A stretch of 64,000 nt of DNA, from assembly GCA_964016885.1 (NCBI GenBank), contig OZ024743.1, positions 168,888,001 to 168,952,000 of the forward strand, given 5' to 3'. Source of the stretch: Eledone cirrhosa (Eukaryota). The notes under the pieces are model-generated. The model searched no databases and was not told the origin of the DNA. It saw nothing but the letters and a program-made list of their open reading frames with translations. Below, piece by piece: positions 1,638 through 50,257 of this stretch. Position 1 is the stretch's first letter, and each line of letters starts with the position of its first letter. Made by a program: the position numbers and the translations under genes.

Positions 1638-4600
1638 ATTTTTTTTATTCGCCACAAGGAATAACACGAAGAAAAACATTAGAGACGGCACAGAACAGTA
1701 CAAGACGATACAAAGTGGGTTTTGGGCGTGTAAACAAGTTATAAAAAAATTAGGCTAGAAATCAAAACAATTTAAACAACAACAATTCCCCCCAAAAGGG
1801 GAAACCTCCGAGGGTCACTCGTGGCGAAAACCACACAAAAAGGCCACAGCCACCCTGACCACCAGAGCAAGCACCCTCTCTCAGTTTTCCCACTCCTCAG
1901 TCTAAAGGCGCATACTCAGACCGGGCCCGTTCACTCGATCCAGACTCGCCACATTCACCCACCTTTCAACAAACTTACTAGAAGATAGCACTTGCCTCTC
2001 CACCCTGATTTTCCTCTTCAAGTGAAACTTGAAAAAGTTAATCGGGGATTGGCCGAAGAGGAAAGTGTCCGTATCAACCCTTTCAACCTTGTCAACCACA
2101 CAATCTCTTTCGCCATGGCCTCCAGGCAGATGAAAACTTCCTGCCCTTCCTCCTCTTTAAAGGAGGATGGCGGGGTTATCTGCACAATGGACTCAGTTGA
2201 TGACCGGATCCGACCTACACGCGACAGCAAATGTTCGACATAGATCCACTAGTCACCAATCCTCAAGCACTGAACGAGTGCGGGCAGGACGGTTTCATCG
2301 CCCTGCGCGCGTCTTGGACAGGCTCGGCTGACATTACCTCCGTGCCTGTAGAGCTTATCCCGAACCAGCAACGCTCCCAGGTAGCACTGCCAGGCCAGGG
2401 ATTTCTGGTAATTGTCCATAGGCGCCGGTCTGAAAGTTCTCTTGAAGAGAGCGAACAGCTGATCGTCTTCGACGCCCAGGGTGTCCCCGAGAACGTCGTC
2501 GCTCTTTCCCTCCACTAGCCCTTTATAGAACTCCGAGGTTGATGTTCCACCGATACTAGTGCCCAGCTGGTGGAGGGTGGTGAGCGCTTGGAGACATTTC
2601 AGCTTTCAAGCGTATTCCCTCCGTCTTTTCCTGATCCAGGACTGCAGCTCCGTCAAGGAGACGAGCTGGGGAAAAGCACCTCTGGCAAACGGCGGCCACA
2701 CCTGTTCACCGCCAAGGAAGCACCAGAGATGTAGCAGCCTCAGCGCATGTTTGCGCATCATCAGCCACAGCATGCCTAGTCCTCCACGCAACGGGTGTTG
2801 ACAGCAAATTGATCTTCTAACCATGGGAGCACGTCCCTTCCACAAAAAGCGGAAGAGAAGGGGCTCCATTTTGGTCAGAGGTGGGCGGGGGCAAGGTACA
2901 ACAGTAAGGCAGTAGCAGATGACGGATTCTATGTACGCATTCGCCACCTCCGCCCGACATTTCAAAGACAGTCTCCTCTCGGCCCATTTCTGGGTGCGAA
3001 AGGCCACCCTGTTCGTCACCTCGCTCCGGTTTTTCTCCATCTGGAGGTCCGGACCGAACCAGATCCCAAACAATTTAACAGGTCATTCCGTCCAGCGCCC
3101 CACGACGCTATCGGTCGGCATGGACTTGCCTCTCCAGGTGCCGAGTTGCAAGCCCACCGACTTTTCCGGGTTTATCTTTGCTCCTGTCACCGCTTCGTAT
3201 ACATTGAGAGCGGTGCCGAATAACTGGTCGTGTTTGGTGCTCGACACTACCACGGTGACATCGTCGGCGTAAGCTGACACAGATCTCCCGCATCCCAGTT
3301 TGCTTGGGACTCCCCTCGTCGTCTCCAATTTGTGAAGTAACGGCTCGAGAGCCAGTACGTACAAGAGGGACGAGAAGGGGCAACCCATGGTGGCCCGAGC
3401 GCATAATGCTGAATGGCTGCGACAGGTGGCCATTCACCCACACAATCGAGCAGATGTCGCCTGTGCAACGTTGCGATCCACCCCCTAAACATGGGCCCGA
3501 AGCCGTCCGCCTCAAGGACCGCAGCCAGGTACCGATTGTCGACCCTATCAAATGCTTTAGATTGTTCCAAGTTGATCAGGGCCCTACCCGTGCCAGATTC
3601 CGTAACAACCCTCTCTATGGTGTATCACATGAGATAGAGGTTGTCGTGGATTGATCTGTCTGGGATGGCGCATGTCTGCCACTCTCCCACCAGATCACCG
3701 ACAACAAGCGCCAATCACTTTGCTAACACCTTGACAAAAATTTTAAACTCTGCGTTTAGCAGTGTTATGGGCCTGAAGTTGTCTATAACGTCCCCCTTGT
3801 TCGGGTCTTTTCTCAGCAGCACCACCGCTCCCCAGCTCACAAAACTGAGAATGCTCCCGTTTTTCTGCCAGTTGCAGTAGACATCTGCCAAGAGGTCACC
3901 GAACAAGTCTAGCATATACGCATAAAGCTCTAAGGGTAGACCATCCACACTTGGGGATTTACCCCTCTTGCAGTGAGACATCGCTTCCCGCATTTCACCT
4001 GCTGTTATCGACTTTTCGCACCACTGCGGTCATTGCGAGCCCCGGCAATCCGTCGAGGTATGTACTGAAGTCCATACTCCGATCCGGCCGCCGCAGCTCC
4101 CTAACAATTGAGCAAAGTGCTGTTGAAAAGCCGCACACATTTGCTCGGGTTCGAGCAACATGCACCCCTTTTGCTCAAGCAAAGATCGAATTGTGGACTT
4201 ATTGCCACGTCGCTCCTCCACCACCCGGGCCCATTGAACGGCTTTTGTCCCCTCCTGTCTTAGAGCACGCCCTCTAGCTCTGACGACACAACCTTCATGC
4301 TTTGCGTTGAAGAATTGGTCGAGTGCCAATCTCGCTGCAAGCACGTCGGTTGCGATGCCTGTCCCAAATGCCTCTTCTAGCTTTCTAACTAGCTCTCCCT
4401 CTACTCTATTTTTCCTCTATCACTACTCCTTTGCTAAACCTTATGGATTCTACTCTAATAGCCCTTTTCAGGGTAAACGACCACCTGTTGTTGACGATCG
4501 CACCCGTCAACGCACGCTTAATTAATTCGCTAATCCGGTCTCTGTAAGCTTTGCGCGCCGGGAACGACGCGTTCAGCTTCCAGTAGCAGAGCCCTTGCTT

Positions 4601-5380
4601 ATGGAGTCTATCTAAGTCAACTTCACAGATCACAAATTTGTGGTCCGTGTAGTCGACTACTTTAAATTGTGGACAACCTACACTAGCCTTATCTGTTTCC
4701 CTACAGAATACCCTATCTGTATACGATCTAGATGACCCAATGCGGTTTGCCCATGTCCACATTGGCATATTCGGATAATCCAGCCTCTACCTGTCAGACA
4801 GTTCCAAACGTATGAGCAGGTTGTTGAGGCTTTTACACCTTCCTCCCCTGTCTACTAGCCCCACAAAATCACAGCGTGACATTTTTCTGACGGTGCGGTA
4901 AGTCACTGCCTGTAGCTGCTGGTCCTTGAAAAAATCGGGTGGAGGTTTCAGGGACACTCTATTGTCATTTCTTGTCACCATGGCCCTTGCAACTGCCATC
5001 TCCTCCTCTGTGACTAGCACTGTTTCTATATTTCGGGCCACACCTGCGAAAGAAGTGGCCCCTGTTTCAGCGGCACCATTATTGCTGCCGCTACTGCTGC
5101 TACTGGTCTTGTTGTTGGTGCTGTTGCTGTTGGTACTGCTACAAACGGTGTTACTGGTGTTGTTGGTGTTATCACTGTTGTAGTTGGTTGTGTTTTTAGT
5201 GCCACCGTTGTTCTTCCCGGTGCAATTTGTATTGCTGCATTTGTTGTCATTTTTTCTGTTGTCTGTATTTTGGTTGTCGCTGTTATCGTTGTAGTTGGTG
5301 TGGTAATTCTTTAAATTATTGTTCTCAGTGTTGTCAATGGTGTCTTTGTTCACATTGTTTGTGGTGGTGTTTGTCGTATC
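1638..5380 (-). mobile_element. Tx1-clade LINE copy A, internally deleted (ORF1 Asn/Thr-rich piece fused to mid-APE, then RT and 3' end)
   Basis: WKLNAS, KSP..DGLP, FRPITLLN, KAFDRV, SAYADD, FRFLWKG motifs on the - strand. 3' end abuts an (ATT)n tract. Confidence 0.85.
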
Positions 5381-5617
5381 AATTTATGTAACCCTCCTCT
5401 CAACTTTTACGCCGTTGCCACACGACAGCAGACATATTGCTGAGGAGCATGGCTCAGCCATGTTCTTTTTGTTTTTTTTAATTAATTTTTAAAAGTAAAA
5501 TGTTCAAATATTTGGGCCAAAAGGCCCAGATATTATACTTTCCCCTTCACAGGACAAAGCCCAAGGGCTTATATCCCTTACACAACAAATAATTATAACA
5601 GGTAAATAAAGCGACTT

Positions 5618-8600
5618 ACTGCAGCTCCGTCAAGGAGACGAGCTGTGGGAAAACGTGCCTGGCGAACGAACAGCGACCACACCTGTTCATCGTCAAGGAA
5701 GCACCAGAGATGTCGCAGCGCAGGTTTGCGCATCATCAGCCATGGCTTGCCCAGTCCTCCACGCAACGGGTGTTGACAGCGATGGATCGTCTGAGCAGGG
5801 GAGCGCGTCCCTTCCACAAAAAGCAGAAGAGGAGGCGCTCCATTTTGGTGAGAGTTGGGACGGGGCAAGGGAAGTCGGTGAGGCGGTAGCAGATGACGGA
5901 TGCGATGTAAACATTCGCCACCTCCTCCCGCCCTTTCAGGGTCAGCTTCCTCTCGGCCCATTTCTGGTGAGGGAGACCACCTTGCTCGTCACTTAGCTCC
6001 AGTTTTTCTCCATCTGGAGGTCCGGTCCGAACCCGAGTAATTTAACCGGTCCGTCCGTCCAATGCCCCACGACGCTGTCGGACAGCATGGACTTGCCTCT
6101 CCAGGTGCCGAGCTGCAAGCCCACCGACTTTTCCTAGTTTATCTTTGCTCCTGTCACCGCTTCGTATTCCTTGAGAGCGTTGCCGAGCATCTGGACGTGT
6201 CTGGTGCTCGACACCACCACGGTGGTGTCGTCGGCATAAGCCGACTCGGATTTCCCGCATCCTAGTTCGCGTGGGACGTCCCTCATCACCCCAGTTTGTG
6301 CAGTAACGGCTCGAGAGCCCATACGTACAAGAGGGACGAGAGGGGACTGGCGGACCGAGCGCATAATGCTGAATGGCTGCGACAGGTGACCGTTCACCCT
6401 CACAACTGAGCAGATGTCGCTGTACATCGCAGCGATCCAACCCCTAAAAACAGGCCCGAAACCGGCTGCCACGAGGACCTCCGCCAGGTACCGATGGTCA
6501 ACCCTATCGAATGCTTTGGATTGATCCAAGTTGATCAGAGCCCCACCCATGCCAGGTTCCTTAACCACCATCTCTATGATGTATCGCATGAGGTGGAGGT
6601 TGTCGTGTATGGATCTGTCCGGAATGACCCATGTCTGCGCCTCTCCCACCAGACACTTGACGACAAGCGCCAACCTCGTTGCTAACACCTTGGCCAAAAT
6701 CTTGAACTCTGCGTTTAACAGGGTTATGGGCCTGAAGTAATCGATAACATCCCCCTTGTTCGGGTTTTTTCTCAGCAGCGCCACCGCTCCCCGGCTCACA
6801 AAACTGGGAATGGTCCCGTTCTGCTGCCAGTGGTAGTAGACGTCTGCCAAGAGGTCACCGAACAAGTCTGGCATAAATGCATAAAGCTCGTAGGGCAGAC
6901 CATCCAAACCTAGCGATTATACCTCTCGTGCAGTTAGCCATCGCTTTCCGTATATCAGCGGCTATTATTGGCTTTTCGCAACACTGTGATGCGGTCGTCG
7001 AGAGCCGAAGCAGTCCGTCGAGGTATGCACTGAAGTCCATACCTCGATCCGGCCCGCCACTGCTCCCGAACAGTTCAGCAAAGTGTTGCTGAAAAGCTTC
7101 ACACATCTACTCGGGTTCGAGCAACACGCGCCCGTTTTGGTCAGATAAAGACCGAATTGTGGCTTTGTTGCCACGTCGCGCCTCTGCCACCCGGGCCCAT
7201 TGGACGGATTGTGTCCTCTCGTGTTTCAAAGCACGCGCTCTAGCTCTGACAACGCAGCCTTCGGGTTTTGCGTTGAAGAATTGGTCGAGTGCCTATCTCG
7301 CCGCAAGCACGTCGGTTGCCATGCCTGTCCTAAACGCCTCTTCTAGCTTTCTGAATAGCTCTCCCTCTACTCTATTTTCCCCTATCACTAGCCATTTGCT
7401 AAACCTAATCGACTCTACTTTAATTACCCTTTTCAGGGCGAACCACCTCCAGTTGTTGACGACCGCTCCCGCCAACGCCCGCTTAACTAAGACGCTAATC
7501 CGGTCTCTGTAGGCTTTGCGCGCCGGGAAAGACGCGTTCAGCTTCCAGTAACCGGGTCCTTGTCTATCAAGTCTGTCTATGTCGATCTCACGGATTAAAA
7601 ATTTGTGGTCCGTGTAGTCGACTATTTTAAATTGTGGACAACCTATACTAACCTTATCTAGTTCCCTGCAGAATACCCGATCGAGATACGATCTGGATGA
7701 CCCGATACGGTTTGTCCATGTCCACGTTGGCACATTCGGGTGATCCAGTCGATACCTGTCAGACAGTTCAAAACGTCTGAGCAGGTTGGTGAGGCTCTTA
7801 CACCCTCCTCCCATATCCACTAGCCCCACACAATCCCAGCGTGCATCCAAGATACCGTTCAAGTCGCCCACTAACACTAAAGAGCGGGACGTTCCAAAAA
7901 AGGTCTCTAGACGTCTAAAGAAATCTGGCCGTGCTGTTCCTGTCAGGGCATAGACGGTTACTTGTCTGAAAGCGTTGCCTTCGTTGCCGGTCACGTCCAG
8001 CACCATCGACTTACCTTCTGGGTTTAGGAAATGGCCCGTATGGCGAGATTCAAGCCTCTCCGAAAAAGGACGGCAACTCCCCCCCCCCCCCCGATCCTGG
8101 ACGGCTGGGAGATGCGTATACATCGTAGCCGCCAAAGATCGGTGCGAAGGCTCATGCTTCGGAGATTCTGGTCTAGTGACCTGATGTCGTTAAGCAGGTG
8201 ACCCTGCTCCCACGATGACCCCAGGCCACGTGCATTTATACTGCCTATTCTGAGTACGGACATGTTGGATGAGAAACGGGGCAAGTGAGAAAGGTCACTT
8301 ACCTTGATCGTGTGGTGAAGGCATAGTAGAACCGTCCCTTTGGCTGGTGATGGGTGTTTCCAAGAGGATGTCAGTGTATATCCTTTTGGTAACCGACCCT
8401 CTGAAGTCCCCAACTGCGTTGGGGAATTTTTGTTTTAAAAGTTTGTACTGTTCTATTTTGATATCAATGATGCTTATGTTTGTCGGGAGAGTTCTTGGTG
8501 TTGGTGGGGTGTAGTAGTTTTTTCTGTGATGTCTGTGTGCTGCTTTATATGTTGTATGAGTTCTTTATTTGCCATGTTTAAGGCTGTGTACTTTTTGGGG

Positions 8601-9560
8601 ACAGGGGTGATTTTGTTGCTGTTTTCTTGTTATTGCTGTTGGGTGTGTGTGCGTTTTGTTTTGTTTGCGTTGTTGGTGTTTTGGTGATGCTGGTGGTGGT
8701 GTGGTTGTTGTTGGCGGTGGTGCTTGTGGTCGTGATAGTGATGGTGGTGGTGTTGCTGCAAGTTTCCTTGCAGCCTTTACCCCTCTTTGTGTGCCTTCGC
8801 TTTTGGAGAGTGAAGCTAAGGGTTTTTTCTTTGTTGTTTTCTGTGGCAGACCGTTTGCCACTCACTCCCGCCTCAAACTCCATGTCGGATTCCGTGGCGT
8901 CTGGGAGGGGTATGTGCTCCACAGCTGTTGGTGGTGGTAGTGGAGCCCTCTCCGGCAATTTTGTTGCTGGTGCAGCTACTGCAAATGTAGCTATTGGTGT
9001 TGCCGCCACTGACGCTGCTGCTTTAGTTGTCCGTGGCCTTGGTACGGGTGCCACGGACGTTGCCCTCCTACTCACAGTAGAAGGGGCTTCTGTGTTTGTT
9101 GCCTGCCCTGCTGTTGGTAGCAGTGGACTAGGTATCGGAAGGAGAGGACCCTTCTTCTTCGCTGTCTTCTGCGGGCAAAAGGCCCCTAGGTGACCCTTTG
9201 ACCCACAGAGATAACATTTTGGCCGTCTTCCTTCTACGCTTATAGGGAGTTGGAGTCCTTCCTCTATGTCTATGATATCGGGGATAGCGTCGATACATTC
9301 CTGGTCAGTTTGTATAAGCATTTGCATGCCTATACCTGACCAGTTCTCTCTCCCTATCTTTTCTACTTGCAGCATGGTCGTCCTGTTCTCGATTCCAGCA
9401 AGGACAGACGCGGCCAGCCAAGGTTTGGGCACGTCGGGTGGGACCTGTGTCACTTTCACCCTCACAATTTTCTTCCCGCAGTAGGAGGGCACCAAGACTA
9501 TCTCCTCACTCTTTAGGGTTACCAAAGAGTGAGACTTCGCTTCTTGGGGAGTGGCGAAAC
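5618..9560 (-). mobile_element. Tx1-clade LINE copy B: ORF1 (8578-9525, CCHC knuckle CYLCGSKGHLGAFC) plus disrupted APE-RT ORF2 (ATG at 8263), 3'-truncated
   Basis: ORF2 begins MSVLRIGSINARGL and carries GDLN, YLDRVF, TDH, WKLN, RPITLLN, KAFDRV and YADD. Confidence 0.88.
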
Positions 9561-9687
9561 TTCTTCTAAACTTCTATCAAGTTTAAAACTTGAATAAAAG
9601 GTTTAGAACGGTTGAAAACGAGGTATACTGTAGGTAAAAACTGGAGGCAATAAGAAGCGTGGCTTCACCTTCAATAATAATAATAAT

Positions 9688-9990
9688 AATAATTGTTTCT
9701 TTTTTTGGCACCAGGCCAGCAATTATCCCACTACATTACTGGTACTTTATTGTATCGACCCCGTAAGGATGAAAGGCAAAGTTAATAATAATAATAATAA
9801 TAATTGTTTCTACTTTTGGCACAAGGCCAGCAACTATTCCAGTGCATTACTGGTACTTTATTTTATCGACGCCGTAAGAATGAAAGGAAAAGTTAACCAC
9901 GGCGGGATTTGAACTCAGGCCTTTTAAGGCCATAACTCTAATGCTGCAGAGCATGGTTTCTAACGCTCTACCGATACTGCCAATTCACAA
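9688..9990 (-). mobile_element. Two copies of the same SINE (one 5'-truncated) in (AAT)n
   Basis: Same core and tail as the 51.3-52.3 kb array. Confidence 0.85.
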
Positions 9991-9997
9991 GAATAAC

Positions 9998-10040
<43 letters not shown>

Positions 10041-10041
<1 letters not shown>

Positions 10042-13000
10042 TAATTTCTTTATTGGCCACAAGAGCCTACATATAGGGGACAATACAACAGACGGGGACG
10101 GTGCGGGTTTACATATAGAGGTATGAAAATATAAATAACAATAACAAAATAACAATAAAAATTCAACAATGAAAACCTCCAGGGTCGTGTCAGGAACCCC
10201 ACCAATCCTGGGAAGGGTACCCCTCTCCTCCTCAAATTAACCAGTTTACAGGCACATGAGAGTGGCTACCCTGATCGTGACTACGTCCCAATTCTTATCC
10301 AGATGGGGGTTTGGTCCAAACCAAACCTCGATCAACTTTAGTGGTCCTGCCAAGCAGCAAGCCCACAGACTTTTCCGGATTTAGTTTCGCTCTCGTCAAC
10401 CTTGATTTCCGAGGTGTTCGGCACCATCACGGTGATGTCGTCTGTGTATGCCGGCACAGCCCTTCCACGTCCCGGTTCGAGCAGGATACCCTGCAACAGC
10501 TCTATCTTCCGTAGTAAAGTCTCGAGAGTCAATAGATACAGAAGGTAGGAGAGAGAGCACTCTTGACAGACGGACCGGGAGATCTTAAACGGTTCCGAAA
10601 GGTGACCATTAACTTTGACCACTTAGCAGATGCCGCTGTGCATTGCAGCGATCCAGCCTCTGAAAACGAGACTGAAGCCAACTGCCTTGAGGACAGCCTG
10701 CAGGTATCGATGATCGACCCCATCGAAGACTTTCGATTGATCTAAATTAACCGGAGCTCCACCGAAGCCAGGTTTACACCCAGCCCTCTCTATGATGTAT
10801 CGCATGAGGTAGAGGTTGTCATGTATGATCTGGTCGGGGTTGCGCAAGTTTGCGCCTTCACGACAAAATCCTCGACGACATGCGCTAACCTCTTCGCTAA
10901 CACCTTGACCAAAATCTTAAACTCCGTGTTGAGCAGAGTTATGGGCCTGAAATTATCTAATGTATCCCTCTTATTCTCCCCTTTCTCATCAGCATCACTA
11001 CACCCCAGCTCACAGAACTGGGAATACTCCCGTTCTGTCGCCAGTTGCAGTAGAGCGCTTTGAGGAGTCGGAGAACAAACCTGGTATAACTCGTAAGGCT
11101 GTCCATCCAAACCGGGAGACTTGCACCTCGTGCAGCCGACAAGGGCATTCCAAATTTCGGCCGAAGTTATCGGCCTTTCACAGTGCTCAGCATCTGTCGT
11201 CGAGAGATGCGGTAGGCCGACGCAGTAGGGACTGAAGTCCGCTACTGTCTCCGACCTGCCACTTCCCCCGAACGGCCGAGCAAAATATTGGCGAGAGGCC
11301 TCATAAATCTGCCTGGATTCGTTAAGTTCGCGTCCGTCTCGGTCCGTCAAAGATCGAATTGTGGTTCTGTTACCATGCTGCACATACGCCAATCGAGCCC
11401 ATCTAACAAATGTCGTTCACTCGTTTCTTTGAGCACGCGTCTTAGCTCTGACAATGCAGCCTTCGTGTTTCGCATTAAAGAAATGGTCTAGTGCCATTCT
11501 TGCAGCTAGCACGTCTGTTGCAATGCCACTCCTAATCGCCTCATCTAATTTAGTTACTAACTCCCCCACAATTTTATTTTTTCCTATCGCTACTTCTTTA
11601 CTGAATACTATAGGTTCTACTCTAATCATTCTCTTGAGAGTGCCCCACCACGTGTTATTGACGATGATTCCTGTCAACTTCTGATTAACTAATTTGTTAA
11701 TCTGGTCAATGTATGCTTTACGCGCCAGTAACGACACGTTAAGCTTCCAGCAACCGTGTCTCTCTCTACGTGTTCAATCTCAGTTGACCATGCAGATCAC
11801 AAATTTTTGGTCTGAATAGGCGACCGTATGTAATTGTGGACACCCTACTCATCTTTATCCGCTAAAATAAATTAGAGACCAATCTAAGTACGATGTAGAT
11901 GTCCCTAAGCGTTTTGTCCACGTCCACACTGGCGCATTAGGGAAATCTAGTCGGCCTTAGTTGAAACTGGCTGATCAGGTTTTTTATGCTTTTTACACCT
12001 CCTCCCCCACTTCTATCGGCTACTCCTACAGAATCCCAGCATGCGTCCAAGATACCGTTCCAATCCCCCGCTAACACTAACGGGCGAAACGTTCCTAGAA
12101 AGGCTTCCAGACGCCTAAAGAATTCTGGCCGTCCTGTCCCAGTCGGTGCGTAGACAGCCACCAGTCTAAAAACACCACCTTTACTATTGTTCACATCTAG
12201 GATCACCAGCTTACCGTCCGGGTCCAGGAAGATCGTCCGTACCTCATGACCCATGCCTTTCCTAAACAGCACTGCCACCCGCCTCCCATTCCAGGCCGAC
12301 CAAGAGATGCGTTGGTCTCAAAGTCGTCAAGAATAGGGGCTAGTGCATGCGTGTCTGAAATCATGGTCTCGCTGACGACTGTCACATCCACGGCTAGTGA
12401 CCTAAGGTCGTTGAGGAAGCGGGCTTTCTTACATGCTGACCCCAGGCCACGAACATTTATGCATTCCACTCTTAATATCCCCGTGTTGGTCGGAAAAAAA
12501 GAGAAAGAGAGAGTTACTTACCACCTGGGTGCTGTTGGATGTCGGGTGGTTCAACCTCCATGTCTGGTTGGTGGGGTCCCTTTGGGAACCCCTTTAAAAG
12601 CCTACTTGAGGTTTTTACACTGCGCGTTCCCACGTTGTTGGGGAAGCCTTCCCTTTTTCTCTATTTCTTTCCTTCGTGTTATCAGGGCCATTCATTTTTC
12701 GATTGCCCTTCTTAATAACCCAAACTTATGTGTTGTGGTGGTTATGAGTTGCTGCTGTGTGTGTTTTTGTTTAGTTGTTGGGATTAGTGGTTGTGTTGTT
12801 GGTGGAGATGGTGTTTGTGTTGACGGTTATGTTGTTGCTGGCGTGAGTGTTGTGGTATGTGTGTCTGTGTTTGGTACGAATGTGTCCTCTCTGTTTGTTG
12901 TTGTTTTGTGTCGGTGTGTGAGATTTGTTCTTGTTTCCTTTTGTTTTTAGGTTTTTAGGGTTTCCTCATCCTCGCTCAGCGATGAAGAGATTGCTGTGTT

Positions 13001-13480
13001 TGTGTAGGATGTAAATGGGAGTGTGTATGGGTGTGTTGCTTTCAATGTGTGTGTGTGTTTGAGAGGGGAAACGGGAGAGCTTCTTTGGAAGTCCTCCTGG
13101 GTGATTTTGGTGGTCCTTGCAGTTGTTGGTTGTGGTTCTGTGGCTGTTGCTGGTGGTGTTGTTTGTTTTGCTGGTGCTGCTGCAGATTTTGGTGTTGGTG
13201 CTGTTGTTGTTGCTGTTGGGGCCCTGGTGTTGCCAGATGTTCTGTAAATGGCAGAAAACTCTAGTTTGGCCACACAGATGACAGCGTGTTTTTCCCCTTC
13301 TACGCAGACCCTTATTTCCTTTCCTCCTGGAAGGGTGATCAGGTCCGGGATCTTGTCCATTGTCTCTGGTTTTATCTGGAGTAGCAACTCCAGACAGGTT
13401 CCGGATCATGACTCCCTCTGCATTATTTTCATCTCCAGAAGGTTTTGGGATGATAACGTGATAAAACAATTTACGATGTC
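10041..13480 (-). mobile_element. Tx1-clade LINE copy C (divergent family), ORF1 remnant plus disrupted ORF2 with deletions
   Basis: INVRGL, VSET, AVYAPT, GDWN, KSPGLDG, RPITLLN and YTDD motifs. Degenerate CHLCG knuckle. 3' end at (ATT)n. Confidence 0.85.
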
Positions 13481-26150: not shown

Positions 26151-29100
26151 TCTATATATTAATTTCAACAATGTCAGTATTCCGTGTGTCATAATTCTCG
26201 ATTATCATTGGTTCATAGGTTTCAAACGACCCCGCCCACCACAACGACGTCAAACTTAAATTAATATGCATAATGCCAATGAGGGAGTGGATACACTATG
26301 TATATGCGGCAGTGTAGAGACAGTGTGTGATGTGTGAGGAAATAAGAGGGGAAGGAAAGCAATAACTATAAACATGTGTGCGTGTGTATGTACGTGCACG
26401 TATGTTTACGTGTGTGCAGCGTTCCACAGAAAGTAAAAACTATCAACATGTGTGAGTGTGTGCGTGTGTGTAAATGCACGGGTGCGTGTGTAAGTTTGCG
26501 TTCGTGTACGCGTTTCCATGCGTGTATGTGTGTGTACGTGCGGCGTTCCACACAATCGCCACGCAGTTTATCTGTCTGTGTGCCTGTCTGTAAGTCTAAC
26601 ATACACAGAGTTGTGAAGGGAGTAAATAGGGGCCTTTCTTTACATTGACGGACATCTTTTATATTTATTATTGTGTCATTTTTTGACAATTGCTCGAAAT
26701 GAATACTGATAATAAAAGCAATTCGACTTTATCAAACAGTGAACTACAGCGGCGACGGCGTGCAGCCAGGAATGAAGAAAAACGGGCCGAACAGCGCCAT
26801 CGGAACGCTGTACTTCAGAGGCGAAGACGTGCCGCCATGAATGAAGAGGAGCTGACTGAACAACGTCAACAAAACACTGGAGCCAAGCAACGACGGCGTG
26901 CTGCAATGGTTGAGGCCGAACTGGCTGAGCATCATCAGCAGATGGCCGGAATTCAGCAGCAACGGCGTGCTGCAATGGATGAAGAGGAGCTTGCCGAACA
27001 GCGCCAGCGCAATACAGAAGTCCAGAGAATGTGTCACCAAAGTGCTCCTCATTCCAGTAAAGAGGCGAGAAGGCGAACGGATGATATTAAAAATGTATCA
27101 TGGCAACCGTGTCATTTTCAGATTGGTGGACGAGCAGATTGTCCACATTGTGGAGTATTTGCTTTGGAGACACGAAAAGAAGTGGACCACAATGTGCTGC
27201 CATAAAGGAGCAGTTCAACTAGAACCCTTGCGAATGCCGGATGATGAGGAGTCACCGGAGTTTAAAATACTAAGTATGTGTGGTGATCAAGGAGACCGAC
27301 GTAGATTACTGCGCAAATATTCGCGGCAAATTAACAATTCATTAGCTTTAGCATCGCAGAGAGTTAGTGAGATGTTTGAGAGTGGAGCATGGCAACCGAA
27401 TGTAGTCATTCAAGGCCGTTTGTATCATTGTATCGGTAATTTAGAAGTTACGCTAGGAGAGAGGCCTCGATTCGCTCAAATTTACGTTAACGATCCAGAT
27501 TATAGTGAATCGGAGGAGGATATCAGGATCGGATGGATGAAGTTGGCGGCATATATAACTGAACTTGAACGGCAAAGGTTAAGTGATTTGATCCGTGATT
27601 TGCAATCATGGCTTAGACAGTGTAATCCTTATGTTATGGATTTCATGTTGGTGGCTGAACTGCAAAATGTTCAGCGGCAAACATTGGTGATTAAAGCTGT
27701 CGCAGTACCAAGGAATCAACACGAACGGCGATATAATGCCCCTGAAGGATTTCGTGAAGTTGCTGTGTTGATGGACGATAAGCCTGGATCGAGAGATATC
27801 GTCCTCAATCGCAGAGATGGTGGTCTCAAGACTATCAATGAGTCAAATAGGGCATACGATCCATTGCATTATGTTCTTTTATTCCCAAAATGTGAAAATG
27901 GATGGAACATGTCTGTTAATTTAGATGATATATGAGAATCAGCATCATGGGGAAGGCGGCAATAGAGACAATAATTCGATTCGCGACTTTTACGCGTTCC
28001 ATTTGAACGAGAGGAATCAACAGAGAAATTAGCTATTTCAAGCCAGCAGATTGTTCCAGGAATACTGTTGTATGGCATTCGCAAAGATCTAAAATCAAAG
28101 GCTAAATTATATAGCTACACATCAGCAACATATCAGAGCTGAATTGTATAATAATATATAGGATGCGATAACAGCCGATGATGCCAATTACCAGCAAATT
28201 GGTCGACGCATCATTTTGCCATCGTCGTTCATCGGCGGCCCGAGATATATGAACATTCGCTATCAGGATGCAATGGCTACTGTCAGAAAGTTTGGAAAGC
28301 CAGATTTGTTTATAACGGTTACATGCAATCCAGAATGGACTGATATTAAGGATGCACTTTTGCCAGGACAACAGCCAAAGGACCGTCCTGATATTGTGAC
28401 ATGAGTATTCAAAGGATATTTGAAAAAGATAATGGATAATGTGGAAAAAGAGGGAATCTTTGGAGCTATAGTTGCTTTTACATACGTAATTGAATTCCAA
28501 AAAAGAGGATTGCCACATGCACATTTGCTGATCATTTTACATAGAAATTGCAAATTGAGATGTTCTGAGGATGTCGGCAGCTTTGTGTGTGCTGAACTGC
28601 CGTAGAATGAGGCACTACGCAACTTGGTGGCAAAGTCAATGGTGCACAACCAATGCGGAGTGGCAAATCGGAAAGCGCCTTGCATGAAAAATGGCCAATG
28701 CAGTAAGCACTTTCCGAAATCTTTTGTCACGAACACTTCCTGGAACGATGGGGATTCTCATCCCTCATACAGAAGACGGTCGCCTTCAGATGGCGGTTTG
28801 GTCGAAAATGTAAACGGTCGACAGGTTACAAATCAATGGGTTGTGCCATACAATCCATATTTGATTATGAAATATCGTTGTCATATTAATGTGAAAATTT
28901 GTAGCTCAGTGAAAGCTTGCAAATATCTATTCAAATATGTTTACAAAGGTCATGATCGGGCAATGATCAATGTCAGGAATGAGGAGGCGAACCAAGGAGA
29001 TGAAGTTGGCAGGTTCCAGGATGTTCGCTCGATTGGATCTAGCGAAGCTTGCTGGAGATTGTTCGATTTTGATCTCAATGAACGCAAACCCAGCGTTCAG

Positions 29101-32100
29101 AAACTGACGGTTCACTTAGAGAATAGGCAAATGGTCTGTTTTCAGGACACTAGAAGAGGTGTCGAAAGAATTGCTAACGCACCACCTCCTAAGACGGAAT
29201 TGACTGAGTGGTTCAAGCATAATAGGGAACATGCTTTGAACCTGGATCAAAAGAGGCAACTCTACTGCGATTCCCCTTCCCACTATACGTGGGATAAGAA
29301 GGGAAAGAAATGGAATGATAGAAAACAAAAGTTGAGATTCATGACTATTGGACGGGTTTATAATGTCCATCCCGCATCTGATGATGTGTTTTATCTCCGA
29401 ATTTTGTTGCATAATGATTTTTCGAGAGGTAAACAGAGCTTCGCTGATTTGAAAACAATCAATGGCGTGGAATATGAAACATATCAGGCTGTGTGTCAAC
29501 ATCTGGGACTCCTTCACGATGACGCTGAATAGAATAACGCCATGGAAGCTGCAGGAACAACACAGATGCCAGCTCAAATATGGCAGTTGTTAGTCACGAT
29601 TCTAGGATTCTGCAATCCTGCCGATACAAGAGAGTTATTTGAACGCCATTGGGGAATTATGGCTGATGATTTTAGGCATCATCTTCAGGTCGATGATGAA
29701 AATTTGAATGAAGCTATTGTTTTGCTCAATATTGAGCAACTGCTTGAAGTTTATTTCAAATGTTTAAGAGATTTCAATTTGCCAATTCCTGATGAAGAAA
29801 TGCGGCAACGTGTCTTAGCATTGAACATGAGATTGCAGCTTAGACGGTTGCCTCTCGATCGGAGGGAACTATTGCAGTTTGATCCACTGGAACAGCAACG
29901 TATTGTGGATGAACTTGTGCCAATATTGATCCAATCTCAGAGAGAATTGGTCGATGGCGTTCTCCACTCGATTTCAACTAATGAGCAACTTTGTGCTATC
30001 ATAGATGCTCCAGGAGGCACCGGAAAGACATTCTGTTTCAACACTATGTTATCGGCAGTCAAAGCTCAGAGGAAGATTGCTCTCCCTGTGGCCACCAGTG
30101 GGATCGCTGCCACTTGCTGAGTGGTGGAAGGACCTTCCACTCATGCTTCAAGGCTCCATTGGCTCTGGATGAGTTGAGTGTCTGTAACATTACAGGACAA
30201 AGTGAACTCGCGGACCTATACGCAATACGTCTCTGATTATTTGGGACGAGGCTCCAATGGCACGCAGATATTTGCTGGAGGCATTGGACAGAACTGTGAG
30301 AGATATCTGCGGTAGTGACCTGCCATTCGGTGGTAAGACTATCGTTCTTGGTGGCGATTTCAGACAGGTGCTACCAATTATTGGGAATGCTCAAAGAGCG
30401 CAAATTGTCGATGAATGTCTGAAAAAGTCCCCGTTGTGGCGCCATTTCAGAGTTTTGCGATTACACGTTAATATGCGACTGCGTATGTTCGGGCAAAACG
30501 AAGAGGTTGAGACATACGGCCGATGGTTGATGCAGTTGGGAAACGATGAATTGCCACACGTTGGTGATAATCAGACTGTAAGTATCCCAGACCATTTGGT
30601 CATGCCACTGGACCGCCAAGCATTATTTGACTGGGTGTTCCCTAATTTGAATGCTTTTTGGCAGAATATCTCCTGGATATCGAAACGCGTTATTCTAACT
30701 CAAACGAATGCAACGGTCGACGAAATAAATTCATAAGTAGCCGGAATGTTTCCCGGAGAGGAATGGTTGACCGGATGCAATGGAGCCTAATCAGCAGAAC
30801 AATGTGGATGTTCCGACTGAGTATCTGAATTCACTTCAAATACCTGGATTTCGCCCACATATTTTGAGGTTGAAAAAGGGTATGCCGATTATATTGCTTA
30901 GAAATATCAATCATAAAATGGGCCTTTGCAATGGTACCAGATTGATTGTTGAGAGATTGATTAACGGAAGAGTTTTAGAAGCTAAACTCCCAGGCAGAGA
31001 GGAATCGGTTCTCATTCCGAGGATCATGCTGAGACCAAGTGAAGATCTGCTGCCATTCATTTGGCAAAGGAGACAGTTTCCCGTCAATTTGGTCTTCTCC
31101 ATGACTGTCAACAAGGCGCAGGGACAGACTTTCAAGCGAGTCGGTGTCTACTTGAATGATCCAGCATTCAGCCATGGGCAACTGTATGTTGCTGCATCTC
31201 GAGTGTGCGATCCTGATGGTATAAAATTTGCAATTGATACCACTAACAGAGGAACAACCCTGAATATTGTCTATAATGAAGCTTTGAGATGATGTATGCA
31301 TATTTTTAATGCTATCAATAAGCGACGTAAATGATTCGGACATCGGTGTCCTTTGATCAGTATTGTGAGCTTTGACAGAGTTATCATTTATGTTCAATGT
31401 CATTTAATGTCGTTATGAGCAATAAAAACAAACAAGTATTGGTAAAAATTGCTTTCACTGCTATGTTGCGCAATGAATACCAACAAGTATTGGTAGAAAT
31501 TGCCTTCACTGCTATGAATATTCGACGTAAATGATTCAGACATTGGTGTCCTTTGATCAGTATTGTGAGCTTTGACAGAGTTATCATTTCTGTTCAATGT
31601 CATTTATTGTCGATAATGAGCAATAAAAACCAACAAGTATTGGTAGAAATTGCCTTCAAATTTATCGCTTCTGATTGCGGTGATAATAAAACCTCATCAT
31701 ATGCTCAGTCTGGCAAAAAGGTTGGATACTATGGCCGGCCAGGGCTAGAGTAATATTGAAAAACGATTCTATTTTCGAAGTAGAAGGATCCGCCATTTGG
31801 AGTTCAAACCAGGCCACCTCCCCGAGTTGAACTCTGGGCAACATTGACTGTCTATTAGTCAGTGGCTAAGAGCCTGGAAATTACTGAATACATTTTTTTA
31901 TCATATAATTTGTTGATGTATTATTATAGCTAACCACTTATAGATAAGCATGTTATCCATATCCATATTAATTTGGCATTTGTATAAACCATTTGACGGA
32001 CATTTTTAAAATTAATTATCTATATCTATATCTACATATAATATAAAAGATTGGAACTTCCATCATCCTTTTGAGAAACGTGGAACAACCACGTCTATGC

Positions 32101-41993: not shown

Positions 41994-42801
41994 GAATAAC
42001 TCCAGAAAAATTATTGTCGAGTGCTTCTAATCTATTGTAAAATTGTATTCGTTGAATAATCAACGAACCATATAAACTTTGGTTATATAAATATAAATAT
42101 ATATATATATAAATATAAATATATATATATAAATATATATTTAAATATCATCATGGTATTGGTTTATAAAAACATATCTGTACGCCGACTTGCTGACCAG
42201 ATAACCCCTCAATACAAGGGTGTTAAAACCTCCGAAGCAGAGGGTGCACACACTATATTGTTACTGGTACAGCAAATTAGACATCTTAAATCAAATAAAA
42301 TAAAAATAGAGTATGCAATCAGATAGAACGACGAAAAATCACTTACTTTACATGAGCAATACATTGTTTACCAGTACACCCAAATAGCTCTTTCTAGCTC
42401 TTGAAGAAAACGCGATAATTACCAGAATTAATTGAACACTTAACATGCTGAGATAAAAACTGTCATCAGTGGACGAATCTTAGTTAATTAATCAACTGAT
42501 CAGTTAGTGAATAATCAATAAATCAATTAACTACCAATACGTGTGGTACAAAGCCCTCAAAACCTGTAGCATGTGAGGCGGTCGTACACGGAATGCTATA
42601 GTCATGTACAGAGGAAGGCAGAGGGTCTACTAATATAGACCGTGTCATTCGTGAAGAACTCAATCTATGTTTATTAGCATGGGAGTAATTATAATCAAGA
42701 TCAGCATACAAAAAAGAAGTTTGTTCACTGACTTGCTGACTACGTAACCCCTCAATGCAAGCGCACCAAAATTCCCGAAGAAGAAAGAACATATATGTAA
42801 C

Positions 42802-42995
42802 GGCGGTGAATTGGCAGTATCGGTAGAGGGTCTGACGCAATGCTTTGTAGCATAGAGTTACGTCCCTTTACGTTCAGCGTTCAAATCCCGCCGAGGTTAA
42901 CGTTGCCTTTCATACTTACGGGGTCGATAAAATAAAGTACAAATAATACACTGTGGTAATTGCTGGCCTTGTGCCAAAGGTAGAAGCAAATATTG
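42802..42995 (+). mobile_element. tRNA-derived SINE, same family
   Basis: GGCGGTGAATTGGCAGTATCGG head, GTTCAAATCC, core and tail. Confidence 0.85.
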
Positions 42996-43382: not shown

Positions 43383-43458
<76 letters not shown>

Positions 43459-43694
43459 ATACATTAACGGAGCCATAGACTCTCGCCGTTCCCTGTAAAT
43501 AATGTGCTCAAAGGAGAGGAAATCCTGACCACTTTAAAATACAATATCTTGAAAAGGTAACACAGTAGAGAGAGATACAGTGCGCTATCAATAAATCAGG
43601 GAAAAACTACCAGTGTATGGAATCTATAACCTATGAAAGGCAGAATATAGACACGATAATTAAAAATATAAATTAAAGCGTAAATAAATACCTC

Positions 43695-43797
43695 TATAAC
43701 TATATAACACACGTACAAATCCAAAGTGATCTGTTTCGCCAGTAAGTTGTTGACAGAAATGAAATAACCCAGGTTCATCAGCGTGTGTAAGGCTATA
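43695..43797 (-). ncRNA. Type I hammerhead ribozyme fold
   Basis: - strand: ACACACG-CTGATGA-[ACC TGGGTT..AACTTA CT GGC]-GAA-ACAGATC actttg GATTTGT-A-CGTGTGT. 7-bp stem I, 7-bp stem III, GUA triplet; the stem II base pair is A.C. Confidence 0.75.
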
Positions 43798-44201
43798 CAT
43801 TTCAGACAACACTAAGAGAATTTTTAAAGCGACCGTCCAACTACACATGGGAGAGAGAAGTCACAGCGTGTTTAAGGGCAGTGAACCAGTGGCCTCTGAG
43901 GGACGAACTGCTAGAAAGGGCAGCCCCAAAACAACTCAGAGAAGTGTGCTCAACAAAACAGAGAGAGAGAGAGGAAAGACTGTTATAAGGAGCGAAATAT
44001 CACGATACATTAACGGAGCCATAGATTCTCGCCGGTCCCTATAAATAATGTGCTCAAAGGAGAGGAAATGCTGAGCTCATACTCTGCCTTTCCTAGGTTA
44101 TAGATTCCATACACTGGTGGTTTTTCCCTGATTTATTGATAGCGCACTGTATCTCTCTCTAGTGTGTTACCTTTTCAAAATATTGTATATATATATATAT
44201 A

Positions 44202-45020
44202 GTAGCAGCAGAACGCAGCGTTGCACGGGGTAGGAAACGTGAAATAGCAACACGCATATGAAAAGTTTGAGGAATGTAGCTGTGTACTTTTTGAATACCC
44301 TTATTCTCAGGAAATGATTGAGGAGCGACGTAGTCAATTGTGTGAAAACCAAGTAGGGATGTATGTTTAAGTAGGGATATTGAGATGACGAAATCAGCGT
44401 GGCAACGCAGAGGTAGCAGAAGGGGGTCATAGTGCAATTAGTACAAATGCAGGGCGGCACTGGTTGCACTGCGTTTACACAGCAACAAAGGTGCGACAAA
44501 AGGAGTCACCTTGGAATTAGGACAACCGCTGTTCGTCGTACTTACGCAGGGCATTCATATTGCGGTATAGGTGCAACAAAAGGGGTCTTAGTAGAAGTAG
44601 AAGAGACGTGAGTTTTACGGTGTCAATAACACACCAACGTACTCAGGGCTCGGATTTGCGCATGATGATATCACGAAGCGTCAATAGGGCGCCGACAAAA
44701 ATTTTAAGGAGCTCCTCATTTCCTCAATCCTCCGAAAATATGTCTTCGTTAAATAAACCAAATTTTTAACGAAATATTATACGCTACTTACGATGTTTAA
44801 GTAGCGTATTTCCTAGAAACCATTCAAGTGTCTTTAAAATGAGATTTTTCGCCCTAGGGCAGAAAAAGTTAAAATTCTTTTAGCCCATTGCACTTCAGGA
44901 AATATAAGTAATACATGTGTAAAGTTTGAAAAAATTCAGTCGGGTATTTCTCGAGTTTTAGAGATTTACACAGGCAGGCAGACACACACACAGACAGACA
45001 TCCTCTGTATAGATATATAG
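44202..45020 (-). mobile_element. Non-autonomous Helitron (degenerate 3' end)
   Basis: The - strand starts TCTATATATCTATAC..TGTCTGTCTGTGTG and ends CCCGTGCAACGCTGCG..GCTAC(T). Confidence 0.6.
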
Positions 45021-45859
45021 ATATAAATGACTGTGTGTGTTTCCGCATAACTTCTACAACTTGCAACCGATTTTCTTCAAATTTGGCACAAACATGCGTT
45101 ATTCTCCTGAGCTTCGTAGGAACTCATAACATTTTCAAATTTGTCTCTACTGCGCCGTCTATAAGAGAAAAAGACTCAAAAAATCATTTTTGTCAATAAC
45201 TTCTACAGTTTACATCCGATTTCCTTCAAATTTGGAACAAACATGCATTACGTTCAGCTTTATTTTGGAGTCATAACATTTTATTTAGTGCACCTGCTGA
45301 ACTAGAAAAAATGAATCGAAAAAATTCGCATCGTTATAACGCCCACTATTTGCGACCGATTTCCTTCAAATTTGGAACAACTATGCCTCATGTACCAAAC
45401 ATTATTTCGGACTAACCAATTTTTCGAGTATTTATCTACTCATAAGATTTTAGTTGTTCTTCTTACTGTAGCCTCCTAGCAGCTTAAAATCAACTCAAAC
45501 GGCCACTTCAATTGCATGGTTTACTGCTTGGTCCATGCGGGTTTATCGATTTTTCCCCACTGGCATAGCACGTGATGCACAGATGTTTAGTATAATGGTT
45601 GTACCAGAAAAAGCTTAATTGCTGAAAAAGAATCAAAACCGATCTATTGAAAAAGTCCCCGCCAACTGTTAGCAACAATAACACCGGGTGTTACTGCTTT
45701 ATTCTTTTCACCAAAGAAGTAGGGCACAAACTATAACTTATGTTTCCGCTCCATGTGAGTAACAACTCACAATCATATTTGATTTTTTATTTATACGTGC
45801 TACTACTCCATTGAAGTTTAATTTTTCCAACCCCATGCAACGCTGGGCTCCATTGCCAG

Positions 45860-47629: not shown

Positions 47630-50257
47630 AACCAAAGAAACTTCAACAGAAAAATACAATACCACCCAAGGAGGAAGTGCAATAATTCTGGGAAAAGATC
47701 TGGGCCGAAGAAAAAGTTCATAATATACATGCCCCATGGATAGACAGACAAATGAAAGATACAGCTCACCTTGAGGAACAAATATGGGAAAATATAACAG
47801 TTGAACAGTTGCGTTTGGCTCTTAGAAAAACCAGCAAATGGAAATCCCCAGGAAAAGACAAAATACCAAATTTTTGGATAAATGCCTTCACAGAGTCTCA
47901 TGAGCTGTTAGCCCAACTTTACAATGAAATAGTTAAGGTGCCAGAAAAGATACCATCGTGGCTAGTTAACGGCATTACATTCCTGCTTCCGAAGAATGAT
48001 GAGACAAACAATCCCAAAAATTACAGACCGATAACTTGCTTGACCACAATGTATACAATTTTAACATCAGTCCTAACTGAATATACATATGACCACCTGA
48101 TAACAAATGACCTATTTCCCAATGAGCAGAAAGGGTATAAACGAGGCTCATATGGCTGTAAGGATCAGCTTTTGGTTAACAAAATGATATTGGAAGATTG
48201 TCGTAATAGACACAACAATCTATCAATTGCTTGGATAGATTATAAAAAAGCATTCGATAGTTTGCCACAGTTGGATTGAAAAATGCTTAGAGATTTTCAA
48301 AATATCTCCCGTTGTCAGGAGGTTCCTGTCATTCAGTATGAAGACATGGAAAACGACACTCCTTTTGAATAGTGAAACAAAATCACTGGAAGCTGGAGAA
48401 GTTAATATTAATTTTGGAATTTTTCAGGGTGACTCTTTATCACCGCTTTTATTCTGCATCGCACTTATACCATTAAGTAAAATGCTCAATGAAACAAAAC
48501 ATGGATATAAAGTCTATGACAAAACCATTAATCACTTGTTCTACATGGATGACCTGAAACTATTTGAAAAAGATGATGAACAATTGCAAGGGCTATTATC
48601 AACTGTGGAGCAGTTCAGTGATGACGTTAAAATGGAGTTTGGACTAGATAAATGCGCCAAAGCAACGTTCACCAGAGGAAAGCTGTTGAAAAGTTCAGAC
48701 ATTAATCTTGATCGGGGGAATGTGATAACAGGACTTGATCAAGAGGAAACTTACAAATATCTAGGTGTTTGTGAAGGAGACGGAATTAAGCACTCGACAA
48801 TGAGAGAAAGGATAAGGAAGTAATGTTACGGCAGAGTAAGAGCAATGTTAAGAACGGAATTGAATGCAAGGAATAGGATCGATGCTATAAACACGCTTGC
48901 CATACCAGTAGTAACCTACAGTTACAATGTCATCAACTGGTCAAGCACAGAGATCCGTAGGCTCCATACAAAAAGTAGAACATTCTTAACCATGCACAGA
49001 ATGCATCACCCTAAGCCAGATACAGATAGAATATATCTCCCTAGGAAAGAAAGATGACGTGGGTTAATCCAGTTAGATATTGCGTTGAAAACTGCAACAA
49101 TTGGATTATCTACATATCTAAGGGAATCACATGATTGGATTATCAAACTCGTTTTGAAACACAAAAGCATCATACTCCATTACAGAAGATGCACAAAGAT
49201 ACAGTAATTGACGACAAATTTCAGAAGTCCCATTTACTGCTGAAATGGAAAACACAGAAAAAGCAAAGCAGGTAAAAGTAACTGCAAAGAAAGAACTGCT
49301 ACAGAAACTGCTAAAGAAACTGGCTAAGAAATGGCAAGAAAGGCCTCTGTATAGAAAATACACAGAAAGAGCTAACAATCCTGATATTGACAAAACTTTA
49401 ACCCATCAGTGGTTGGCATCCTCTGGACTGAAATCGGAGACTGAAGGACTGATTATATCAGCACAAGATCAGTGTCTGCCAACAAAAAATTACCAAGCCA
49501 ACATAATAAAAAATGGATGCAACCCATTATGCCGTGTATGTAAAAAACAACCAGAGACCATTGATCATATAATTTAAATGTGCAGTCTTATAGCACCAAC
49601 CGAATACCTAAACAGGCATGACAGAGCTGCACAATACATACATTGGATAATGTGTAAGCATTTTGACCTGCCCCATCAAAAGAATTGGTGAGAACATCAA
49701 CCACCTCCCATGCTTGAAAAAGATCACATCTCAATCTTGTGGAACTTTAGCATCCAAACAGACCGAAAAATAGATGCAAATAGACCTGATATAATACTGA
49801 AGGACTTTAAAAAGAGGGTATGCCTGCTAATTGATATGTCCGTTCCAATGGACAAGAATGTATTTATAAAAACATTTGAAAATTGAGCATGTATAAGGAC
49901 CTGGAGATAGAAATTGGAAAAATGTGGAAATTGAGAACTAAAACAATACCAGTGGTTGTAGGCGCTCTAGGAATGATACCTAAGGGGTCTAATGATTACT
50001 TATCGCAAATCCCAGGAAACCCGCGTATAGGAGAAATACAAAAGATAGTACTAATGGGAACTGCCCATATACTAAGGAAGATTCTGTCAATATAAGTACA
50101 TCACAAGTCTAAACACCTAAAGATGCATGTGTGTGTATGTATGTTCTTTCTTGAACATGGCGCAACTTGTTGTCTCTTGAGGTCACTGGTTGTGACTTGG
50201 TGATAACTCGTATGAACATAAAGCAAGATAAATGCAATTATAATAATAATAATAATA

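Follow-up and report, generated by a model that had tools for sequence, protein, structure and literature searches.

Animal non-LTR retrozymes have been argued to be non-autonomous derivatives of Penelope-like elements (PLEs) (bioRxiv 10.64898/2026.07.22.740005). The EN+ PLEs are described as leaving insertions with a partial tandem, an inverted copy, a tail at one end only and a bias towards (TA)n (PMC8557442), and the tail has been traced to two internal reverse-transcription (RT) start sites (PMC11167929). The function of the hammerhead ribozyme in PLEs has been called unclear (PMC8557442); cleavage was dispensable for insertion in vitro, where hammerhead mutants of the Anolis element left insertion unaffected (PMC11167929). 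Pseudoknots between stem I and stem II are reported in all three hammerhead types and in about 40% of representatives (PMC3088659). The G10.1-C11.1 pair is highly conserved in PLE hammerheads (PMC4209133), while a natural U·U exception at 10.1-11.1 has been described (PMC3088659) and in one axolotl retrozyme family helix II starts, at its base, with a U·U mismatch (PMC7229834; bioRxiv 10.64898/2026.07.22.740005). No literature on such hammerheads in cephalopods was found.

The locus presented here lies in a 64,000-nt stretch of Eledone cirrhosa DNA, which is referred to as the window. The locus is a dispersed copy of a non-coding 546-nt family. We consider it likely that this family was mobilised in trans by a PLE protein and that its RNA forms the predicted type I hammerhead, braced by a helix between its 5' flank and loop II.

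Organization of the locus and its repeat family

The main body of the locus was delimited by copy search and head-to-tail q546|q1 junctions, and its unit is numbered so that q1 = 43996 and q546 = 43451. The following parts were recognized:

43451..43996, minus strand: main body, one 546-nt unit of a high-copy non-coding element
43997..44074, minus strand: upstream partial copy q469-546, 5'-truncated, a pseudo-LTR-like direct repeat ("A") whose length differs between loci
44079..44188, plus strand: inverted 5' copy ("B prime"), which covers q349-458 and reaches the second of the fixed termini, q458
43451..43538, minus strand: 88-nt "tail" between the fixed termini q458 and q546
43383..43454, unstranded: target microsatellite of composition (CA)n(TA)n, next to the 3' end of the element
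44188..44201, unstranded: short (TA)n adjoining the inverted arm

A preliminary description of this DNA had reported a non-coding element with a direct repeat (43455-43530 / 44000-44075), an inverted repeat (43540-43650 / 44079-44187) and (TA)n at both ends. Both repeats were recovered with slightly different limits, the direct one as 43451-43528 / 43997-44074 (78 nt, 95% identity) and the inverted one as 43539-43648 / 44079-44188 (110 nt, complementary at 95%). Likewise, (TA)n was found on both sides, and ORFs of at least 120 aa were absent from the unit (43451..43996).

A 331-nt probe returned 2,346 first-look candidates in the species' own 3.0-Gb genome, and the subset of 40 that was scored showed mostly 94-96% identity. 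The depth of sequencing contigs, from two runs of one sample that is possibly the assembly's own, was flat at 6-9 on the left flank and reached a summed 10^4-10^5 on the element, in agreement with a high copy number. The right flank (44220-44600) is a high-copy repeat itself, with a summed depth of ~4,000-34,000.

The 30 best loci, including the window locus, were variable products of the single 546-nt unit, in which a 5'-truncated direct copy, an inverted one, or the two together come before the body. An inverted arm was present in 22 loci and absent from 8. Ten of the 22 combined an end at 546 with an inverted arm at 458, eight showed the reciprocal arrangement (end 458, inverted 546), and the remaining four ended elsewhere; an identical terminus at both ends was observed in none. 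We infer that q458 and q546, whose edges are blurred by a few AT bases, are reverse-transcription start sites, and both termini are shared by subfamilies down to ~70% identity. The (TA)n tract adjoined the 3' end in 29/30 loci and the 5' end in 22/30. Inverted arms resembled their own body (0.939) more than other bodies (0.880; n = 39), as did partial copies (0.947 versus 0.883; n = 48), which is expected if each insertion derives from one source RNA or subfamily. Full head-to-tail tandems of two to four units were identified at L020, L028, L138 (four units) and L242 (two units), and their non-coding units each contained a type I hammerhead, a trait of retrozymes. The window copy, a monomer with a single hammerhead, is probably a dead end.

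The copies thus display the traits of non-autonomous PLEs, namely the partial tandem (pLTR), the inverted 5' copy, the one-ended tail and the (TA)n bias, and this insertion signature places the family among non-LTR retrozymes / non-autonomous PLEs. The A-B-C-A-B' order, previously taken as the design of the element, is one variable PLE-type insertion product of the 546-nt unit; since it differs across loci and matches the published PLE layout, it represents an insertion scar rather than a design. The same order, together with TA flanks at the single window locus, would suit a DIRS/Ngaro-type element, whose direct repeats are split, or a MITE that has inverted repeats at its ends and duplicates a TA target. 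Both identities are highly improbable, as repeat lengths and inversion vary by locus, eight loci do without the inverted arm, head-to-tail multimers exist, and the fixed terminal repeat arrangement characteristic of such elements was absent across copies.

The 5' breakpoints were informative about the template. None of 133 fell at the cut site of the hammerhead (q284), and the 276-300 bin held 7, with 5 in each neighbouring bin, so that no accumulation of 5' ends was seen where cleavage is predicted. The template was therefore other than a cleaved linear monomer, and cDNA synthesis continued past the cut site, as expected of a circular template and equally of a multimeric one left uncut.

Hammerhead core and stems

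Pattern matching and comparison of copies delineated the predicted ribozyme as follows:

43707..43788, minus strand: type I hammerhead, predicted
43781-43775 (CUGAUGA), 43737-43734 (GAAA) and 43716-43714 (GUA), minus strand: core boxes
43714|43713, minus strand: predicted cut
43788-43782 with 43713-43707, minus strand: stem I, 7 bp
43774-43772 with 43740-43738, minus strand: stem II, formed by A·C and two C-G
43734-43728 with 43721-43715, minus strand: stem III, 7 bp

Stem II closes a 31-nt loop in the window copy, and its first position places A at 10.1 (43774) opposite C at 11.1 (43738). The intact minus-strand CTGATGA/GAAA/GUA core of the preliminary description (given there at 43695-43797) was confirmed at 43781-43714, as was the 7-bp stem III, at 43734-43728 with 43721-43715. 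The Infernal scan that it had proposed returned no Rfam hammerhead match, either on the window at the gathering score or on 43400-44250 at E ≤ 10, so that identification of the motif is based on its sequence pattern and on comparison between copies. A 14-mer that spans both stem I and the core occurred 1,188 times in the genome versus 2 for the reversed control, which puts the motif beyond chance. The nested minimum free energy (MFE) structure of the 111-nt stretch read as a hammerhead in the preliminary description was a fold other than the hammerhead and no better than shuffles (z -0.43).

For the comparison, 73 hammerhead stretches were clustered into 39 representatives, of which 29 were used and 10 were dropped as chimeric, truncated, bearing large indels or very distant. 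GUA was kept in 27/29. Stem I positions were paired in 26-29 of the 29, with C-G/U-A and A-U/G-C/C-G swaps, and stem III was paired in 23-27, with compensatory changes in a register anchored by script. Furthermore, among 16 copies fetched without using the core and ~70% identical to the window unit, C3, A6, G8, A9, A13-A15.1 and A17 were invariant (16/16), with G12 in 15/16 and G5 in 14/16. The core is therefore conserved among copies, including those retrieved independently of it, as the preliminary description had suggested checking, and its reading as a hammerhead-bearing non-autonomous retroelement of the retrozyme/Penelope kind holds for this multi-copy, non-coding family. Among the 30 closest copies, core changes (6/330) were compared with those elsewhere (293/11,923); the core drifts like the rest, which indicates that most inserted copies are free of selection.

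Similar motifs were found well beyond this family. The genome-wide pattern CTGATGARN..CGAAA gave ~21,000 matches versus ~4,300 for the reversed control, with many recurring families, several of them in inverted pairs, which marks the genome as rich in hammerheads that Rfam models may overlook for the most part. Considering these numbers and the failure of Rfam to detect the motif, such hammerhead variants are probably under-counted. One distant family (L149, G000:C1:11455500-11459500) is set apart by one additional A, inserted after position 9 and before 10.1; its stem II measures 4 bp, and it has the same flank-loop II helix (-21.9 kcal/mol) and both tandem and inverted copies. Additional hammerhead families, at L131-L137, L147 and L148, have a short stem II and a large loop II, and their flank-loop pairing is made of other letters.

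A predicted long-range helix beside the core

The 5' flank and loop II are predicted to form a pseudoknot helix of 13-20 bp in two or three segments, with the following strands:

43790..43811 (43796-43790, 43803-43798, 43811-43807), minus strand: 5' strand of the long helix
43748..43770 (43770-43764, 43761-43756, 43752-43748), minus strand: loop II strand of the long helix

Pairing of the 23-nt 5' flank with its own loop II averaged -16.3 kcal/mol versus -11.2 kcal/mol for non-cognate combinations (n = 29; permutation p 5e-5, a value inflated by kinship of the sequences, whose registers shift by indels between subfamilies). The 13 subfamily representatives gave a comparable difference (-15.9 versus -10.4 kcal/mol). 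Own pairing was better than shuffles in 26/29 representatives, and pairing of the 3' flank in 1/29. Among distant loci, 8/10 keep the pairing in different letters (10/12 motifs, three of them from one locus).

The preliminary description had instead extended stem I by pairing the 5' with the 3' flank. That extension failed in both comparisons: cognate energies (-5.70) hardly differed from non-cognate ones (-5.45; p 0.16), and in a ribozyme-independent set it was recovered in 0/16 loci versus 11/16 for the flank-loop II helix. This set comprised 30 loci collected via the downstream segment, 16 of which reach the flank, the 14 truncated ones being dropped. The TATAGC/GTTATA complementarity is present as letters, and the comparative data lend no support to a helix.

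Across 12 close rows the 13 helix pairs were 94% formed, with one-sided changes only, and no excess covariation was detected (417/500 shuffles were as high). Loop II and the periphery of stem I thus show Watson-Crick co-variation, the trait of a pseudoknot brace, across subfamilies in an alignment-free comparison, with two-sided changes at 0 in the 12 close rows. The collection of copies and covariation analysis earlier proposed consequently supported stems I and III and, across subfamilies, the flank-loop II helix, and did not support the stem I extension. The flank-loop hairpin of the window alone was modestly better than shuffles (z -1.33). As the full helix leaves ~8 nt for closing stem II, all segments may not coexist with an active core.

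These energetics bear on whether the helix braces or blocks the ribozyme. It could act as an OFF switch that forms first in transcription and holds stem II open until the PLE protein or another factor remodels it. Consistent with such a switch, the MFE structure of q185-310 combines the flank-loop hairpin with stem III (-26.2 kcal/mol), compared with -12.7 for nested stems I+II+III, where the pseudoknot term is unscorable; moreover, the pseudoknots described in PMC3088659, at 4-6 bp, are much shorter than this helix, and the Anolis PLE hammerhead is reported to cleave only with protein (PMC11167929). However, the hairpin loop holds the 5' strand of stem I, CUGAUGA and ACC, all of which stay available for pairing, the first helix segment starts 1-2 nt from stems I and II, as in bracing pseudoknots, and conservation of the helix goes along with that of the core and of stems I and III. 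A switch is accordingly unlikely in our estimation, and a bracing helix is preferred.

Variation at pair 10.1-11.1

The G10.1-C11.1 closing pair of stem II is absent from the window copy. Exact patterns searched genome-wide returned 36 copies with G-C, 709 with A·C and 588 with A-U, against 14 copies for a control opposite-strand CpG change (G12A); the A-U and G12A patterns each carry one extra fixed base. A10.1 was present in 30/30 of the closest bodies and C11.1 in 27/30, and the window copy is a typical representative of the copies with A·C. Restriction of the G10.1 loss to the youngest subfamily was ruled out, with A also found in subfamilies 69-94% identical to the window unit. The A·C pair of the preliminary description is therefore real, yet it is not a lesion in need of A-to-G repair, given that A10.1 is universal among the closest bodies; the compensation that spread is instead C-to-U at 11.1, which yields A-U.

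In a midpoint-rooted 69-row tree with positions 10.1/11.1 masked and with many open forks, G-C forms were basal, and its starred branches imply a minimum of 3 changes for A-U and of 5 for G-C. A 50-row tree contained 7 A/G changes. Rows for these trees were picked by pattern and then thinned, and some singletons represent post-insertion mutations. The A-U matches listed are spread over separate sub-lineages, and A-U is also the state of L138, the near-identical tandem of four units. The simplest reading is that the pair may have passed from G-C through A·C to A-U, more than once. No mention of "A10.1" was found in the literature searched, where supplements may already show the A·C pair, and the accessible part of PMC9901934 gives no value for the G10.1A change.

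Amplification of 709 copies with A·C at a normally G-C pair could also mean that the hammerhead is a passenger from a PLE pseudo-LTR, and that uncut multimeric RNA moves while the fold serves protein binding. The lack of 5' ends at the cut site (0/133) points the same way, as do hammerhead mutants without effect on insertion (PMC11167929) and the reported success of Naiads without canonical hammerheads (PMC8557442). Against this, catalytic positions are kept in the ~70%-identical subfamily retrieved without the core, and A-U re-pairing outnumbers the opposite-strand CpG change by 588 to 14, a count made of lineage bursts rather than independent events. A passenger role is thus improbable, more so than the switch discussed above, and an active hammerhead remains our preferred reading.

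Candidate intron and autonomous partner

Immediately 3' of the hammerhead, the unit contains a putative intron:

43631..43691, minus strand: candidate 61-nt GT-AG intron

GT was present in 25/29 representatives and AG in 22/29, and the best-conserved 20-nt bin of the unit (0.94) is located inside this candidate. Retention of introns near the hammerhead has been reported for PLEs (PMC8557442; PMC4209133).

The genome contains 10,596 GIY-YIG candidates. One locus (L091:3809-6622, minus strand) encodes a stop-free 938-aa PLE ORF with RT, a CX4CX2C linker and GIY-YIG, flanked by direct repeats in which no clear hammerhead was seen. The CX4CX2C linker has been assigned to Neptune and Nematis and linked to (TA)n (PMC8557442). 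No sequence shared between the unit and an autonomous PLE was detected by nhmmer in 21 PLE loci (E<0.05), and a search of 30 further loci returned the query locus only; the PLE loci compared are a small part of the GIY-YIG candidates. As none of the PLE loci compared shares sequence with the unit, the partner is a putative one.

An AT-rich match of q305-350 (25-46 nt) to the repeat of one PLE family was rejected, being antisense and at chance level (3/30 local shuffles were as good). A related hammerhead element at L101:3169-3604 (minus strand) breaks off at stem I and directly borders an N-terminal coding fragment of a PLE, possibly through a template switch or nested insertion. No second locus of this type was found among 30, and because this one is cut 5' at stem I and single, it was excluded as evidence of descent.

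Other repeats in the window

Several further repeats were observed in the window. A broken ORF series at 26856-31292 (plus strand) ends in a PIF1 helicase and is presumably a decayed Helitron. Non-LTR retrotransposon fragments with RT and AP-endonuclease domains occupy 2606-13400 and 47686-49577. By eye, we take 42800-42990 (plus strand) to resemble a tRNA-derived SINE head; ARAGORN detected no tRNA there, and a similar start flanks L006. A 55-nt repeat occurs three times in 45047-45390, at spacings of 149 and 140 nt.

Proposed mobilization and comparison with known systems

According to the preferred model, tandem source loci of two to four units would be transcribed into multimers, and the hammerhead would cut between units to give monomers that are probably circularised, by analogy with other animal retrozymes. 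A PLE RT/GIY-YIG protein, probably of the Neptune type, would then nick both strands of (TA)n, and cDNA would be primed at two internal sites, q546 and q458. Copying past the cut site and beyond one unit would create the partial tandem, while joining of two cDNAs would produce the inversion and leave the tail at one end only. Within the ribozyme, the flank-loop II helix would prop the 2-3 bp stem II, so that A·C would be tolerated until C-to-U restores a pair. More tentatively, the family may represent a new structural subtype of hammerhead, common to a clan of elements in this genome that depend on Penelope. Most of stem II would here have given way to the 13-20 bp flank-loop II helix, which would serve either as a brace or as a switch released by protein, and the family would record a natural walk of the closing pair from G-C through A·C to A-U.

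The amplified natural variants at a core-flanking pair, together with a co-varying helix that can be broken and rescued, would allow ribozyme rate to be compared with copy success. If such a subtype exists, more than 1,300 copies are already at hand for testing whether Penelope-type mobility depends on how fast the ribozyme is. In the genomic copies, the two-start-site model also takes the form of a strict rule by which the two ends are used reciprocally, and the tail is twice as long as reported.

The class of element that the preliminary description had called possibly undescribed is known; three features are new, namely the periphery of the ribozyme, the series of states at 10.1-11.1 and the reciprocal tail of 88 nt. 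Judged by its layout and its tandems, and as far as comparison of sequences goes, the family belongs to the animal non-LTR retrozymes. As in the published accounts of these elements (PMC7229834; bioRxiv 10.64898/2026.07.22.740005), it is non-coding, has a type I hammerhead and head-to-tail units, is low in GC, comprises many dispersed monomers and coexists with PLEs; similar to the mussel retrozyme described there, it lacks the canonical loop 1-loop 2 nucleotides. The unit measures 546 nt, compared with 170-400 in PMC7229834 and 51-972 in bioRxiv 10.64898/2026.07.22.740005. Unlike the known retrozymes in these accounts, it combines a 7-bp stem III with a 2-3 bp stem II and a ~22-32 nt loop II predicted to pair with the 5' flank, and it carries A·C and A-U at 10.1-11.1.

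With EN+ PLEs of the Neptune and Naiad types, as presented in PMC8557442 and PMC11167929, the family shares the partial tandem, the inverted 5' copy, the one-ended tail, the (TA)n bias and a hammerhead upstream of two termini; a short intron beside the ribozyme may be a further common trait. It differs by the absence of an ORF and by a tail of 88 nt versus the reported 30-40 bp, and no sequence link to an autonomous family was found. The metazoan PLE hammerhead is described as minimal, palindromic and dimer-dependent (PMC4209133), whereas a full stem III is present here.

Pseudoknot-braced hammerheads (PMC3088659; PMC11300833) resemble it in the Watson-Crick pairing between the stem I and stem II peripheries and in a very short stem II. 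The pistol-like PK hammerhead differs in topology, with a helix IV loop replacing helix II (PMC11300833), while stem II is normal here. Searches of the literature, including the accessible text of PMC13725137, turned up no hammerhead of an animal retroelement with a helix of this length, although supplements may show similar folds. Compared with the pseudoknots described so far in these sources, the predicted helix is distinguished by its 13-20 bp, its two or three segments and its joining of loop II with the 5' flank.
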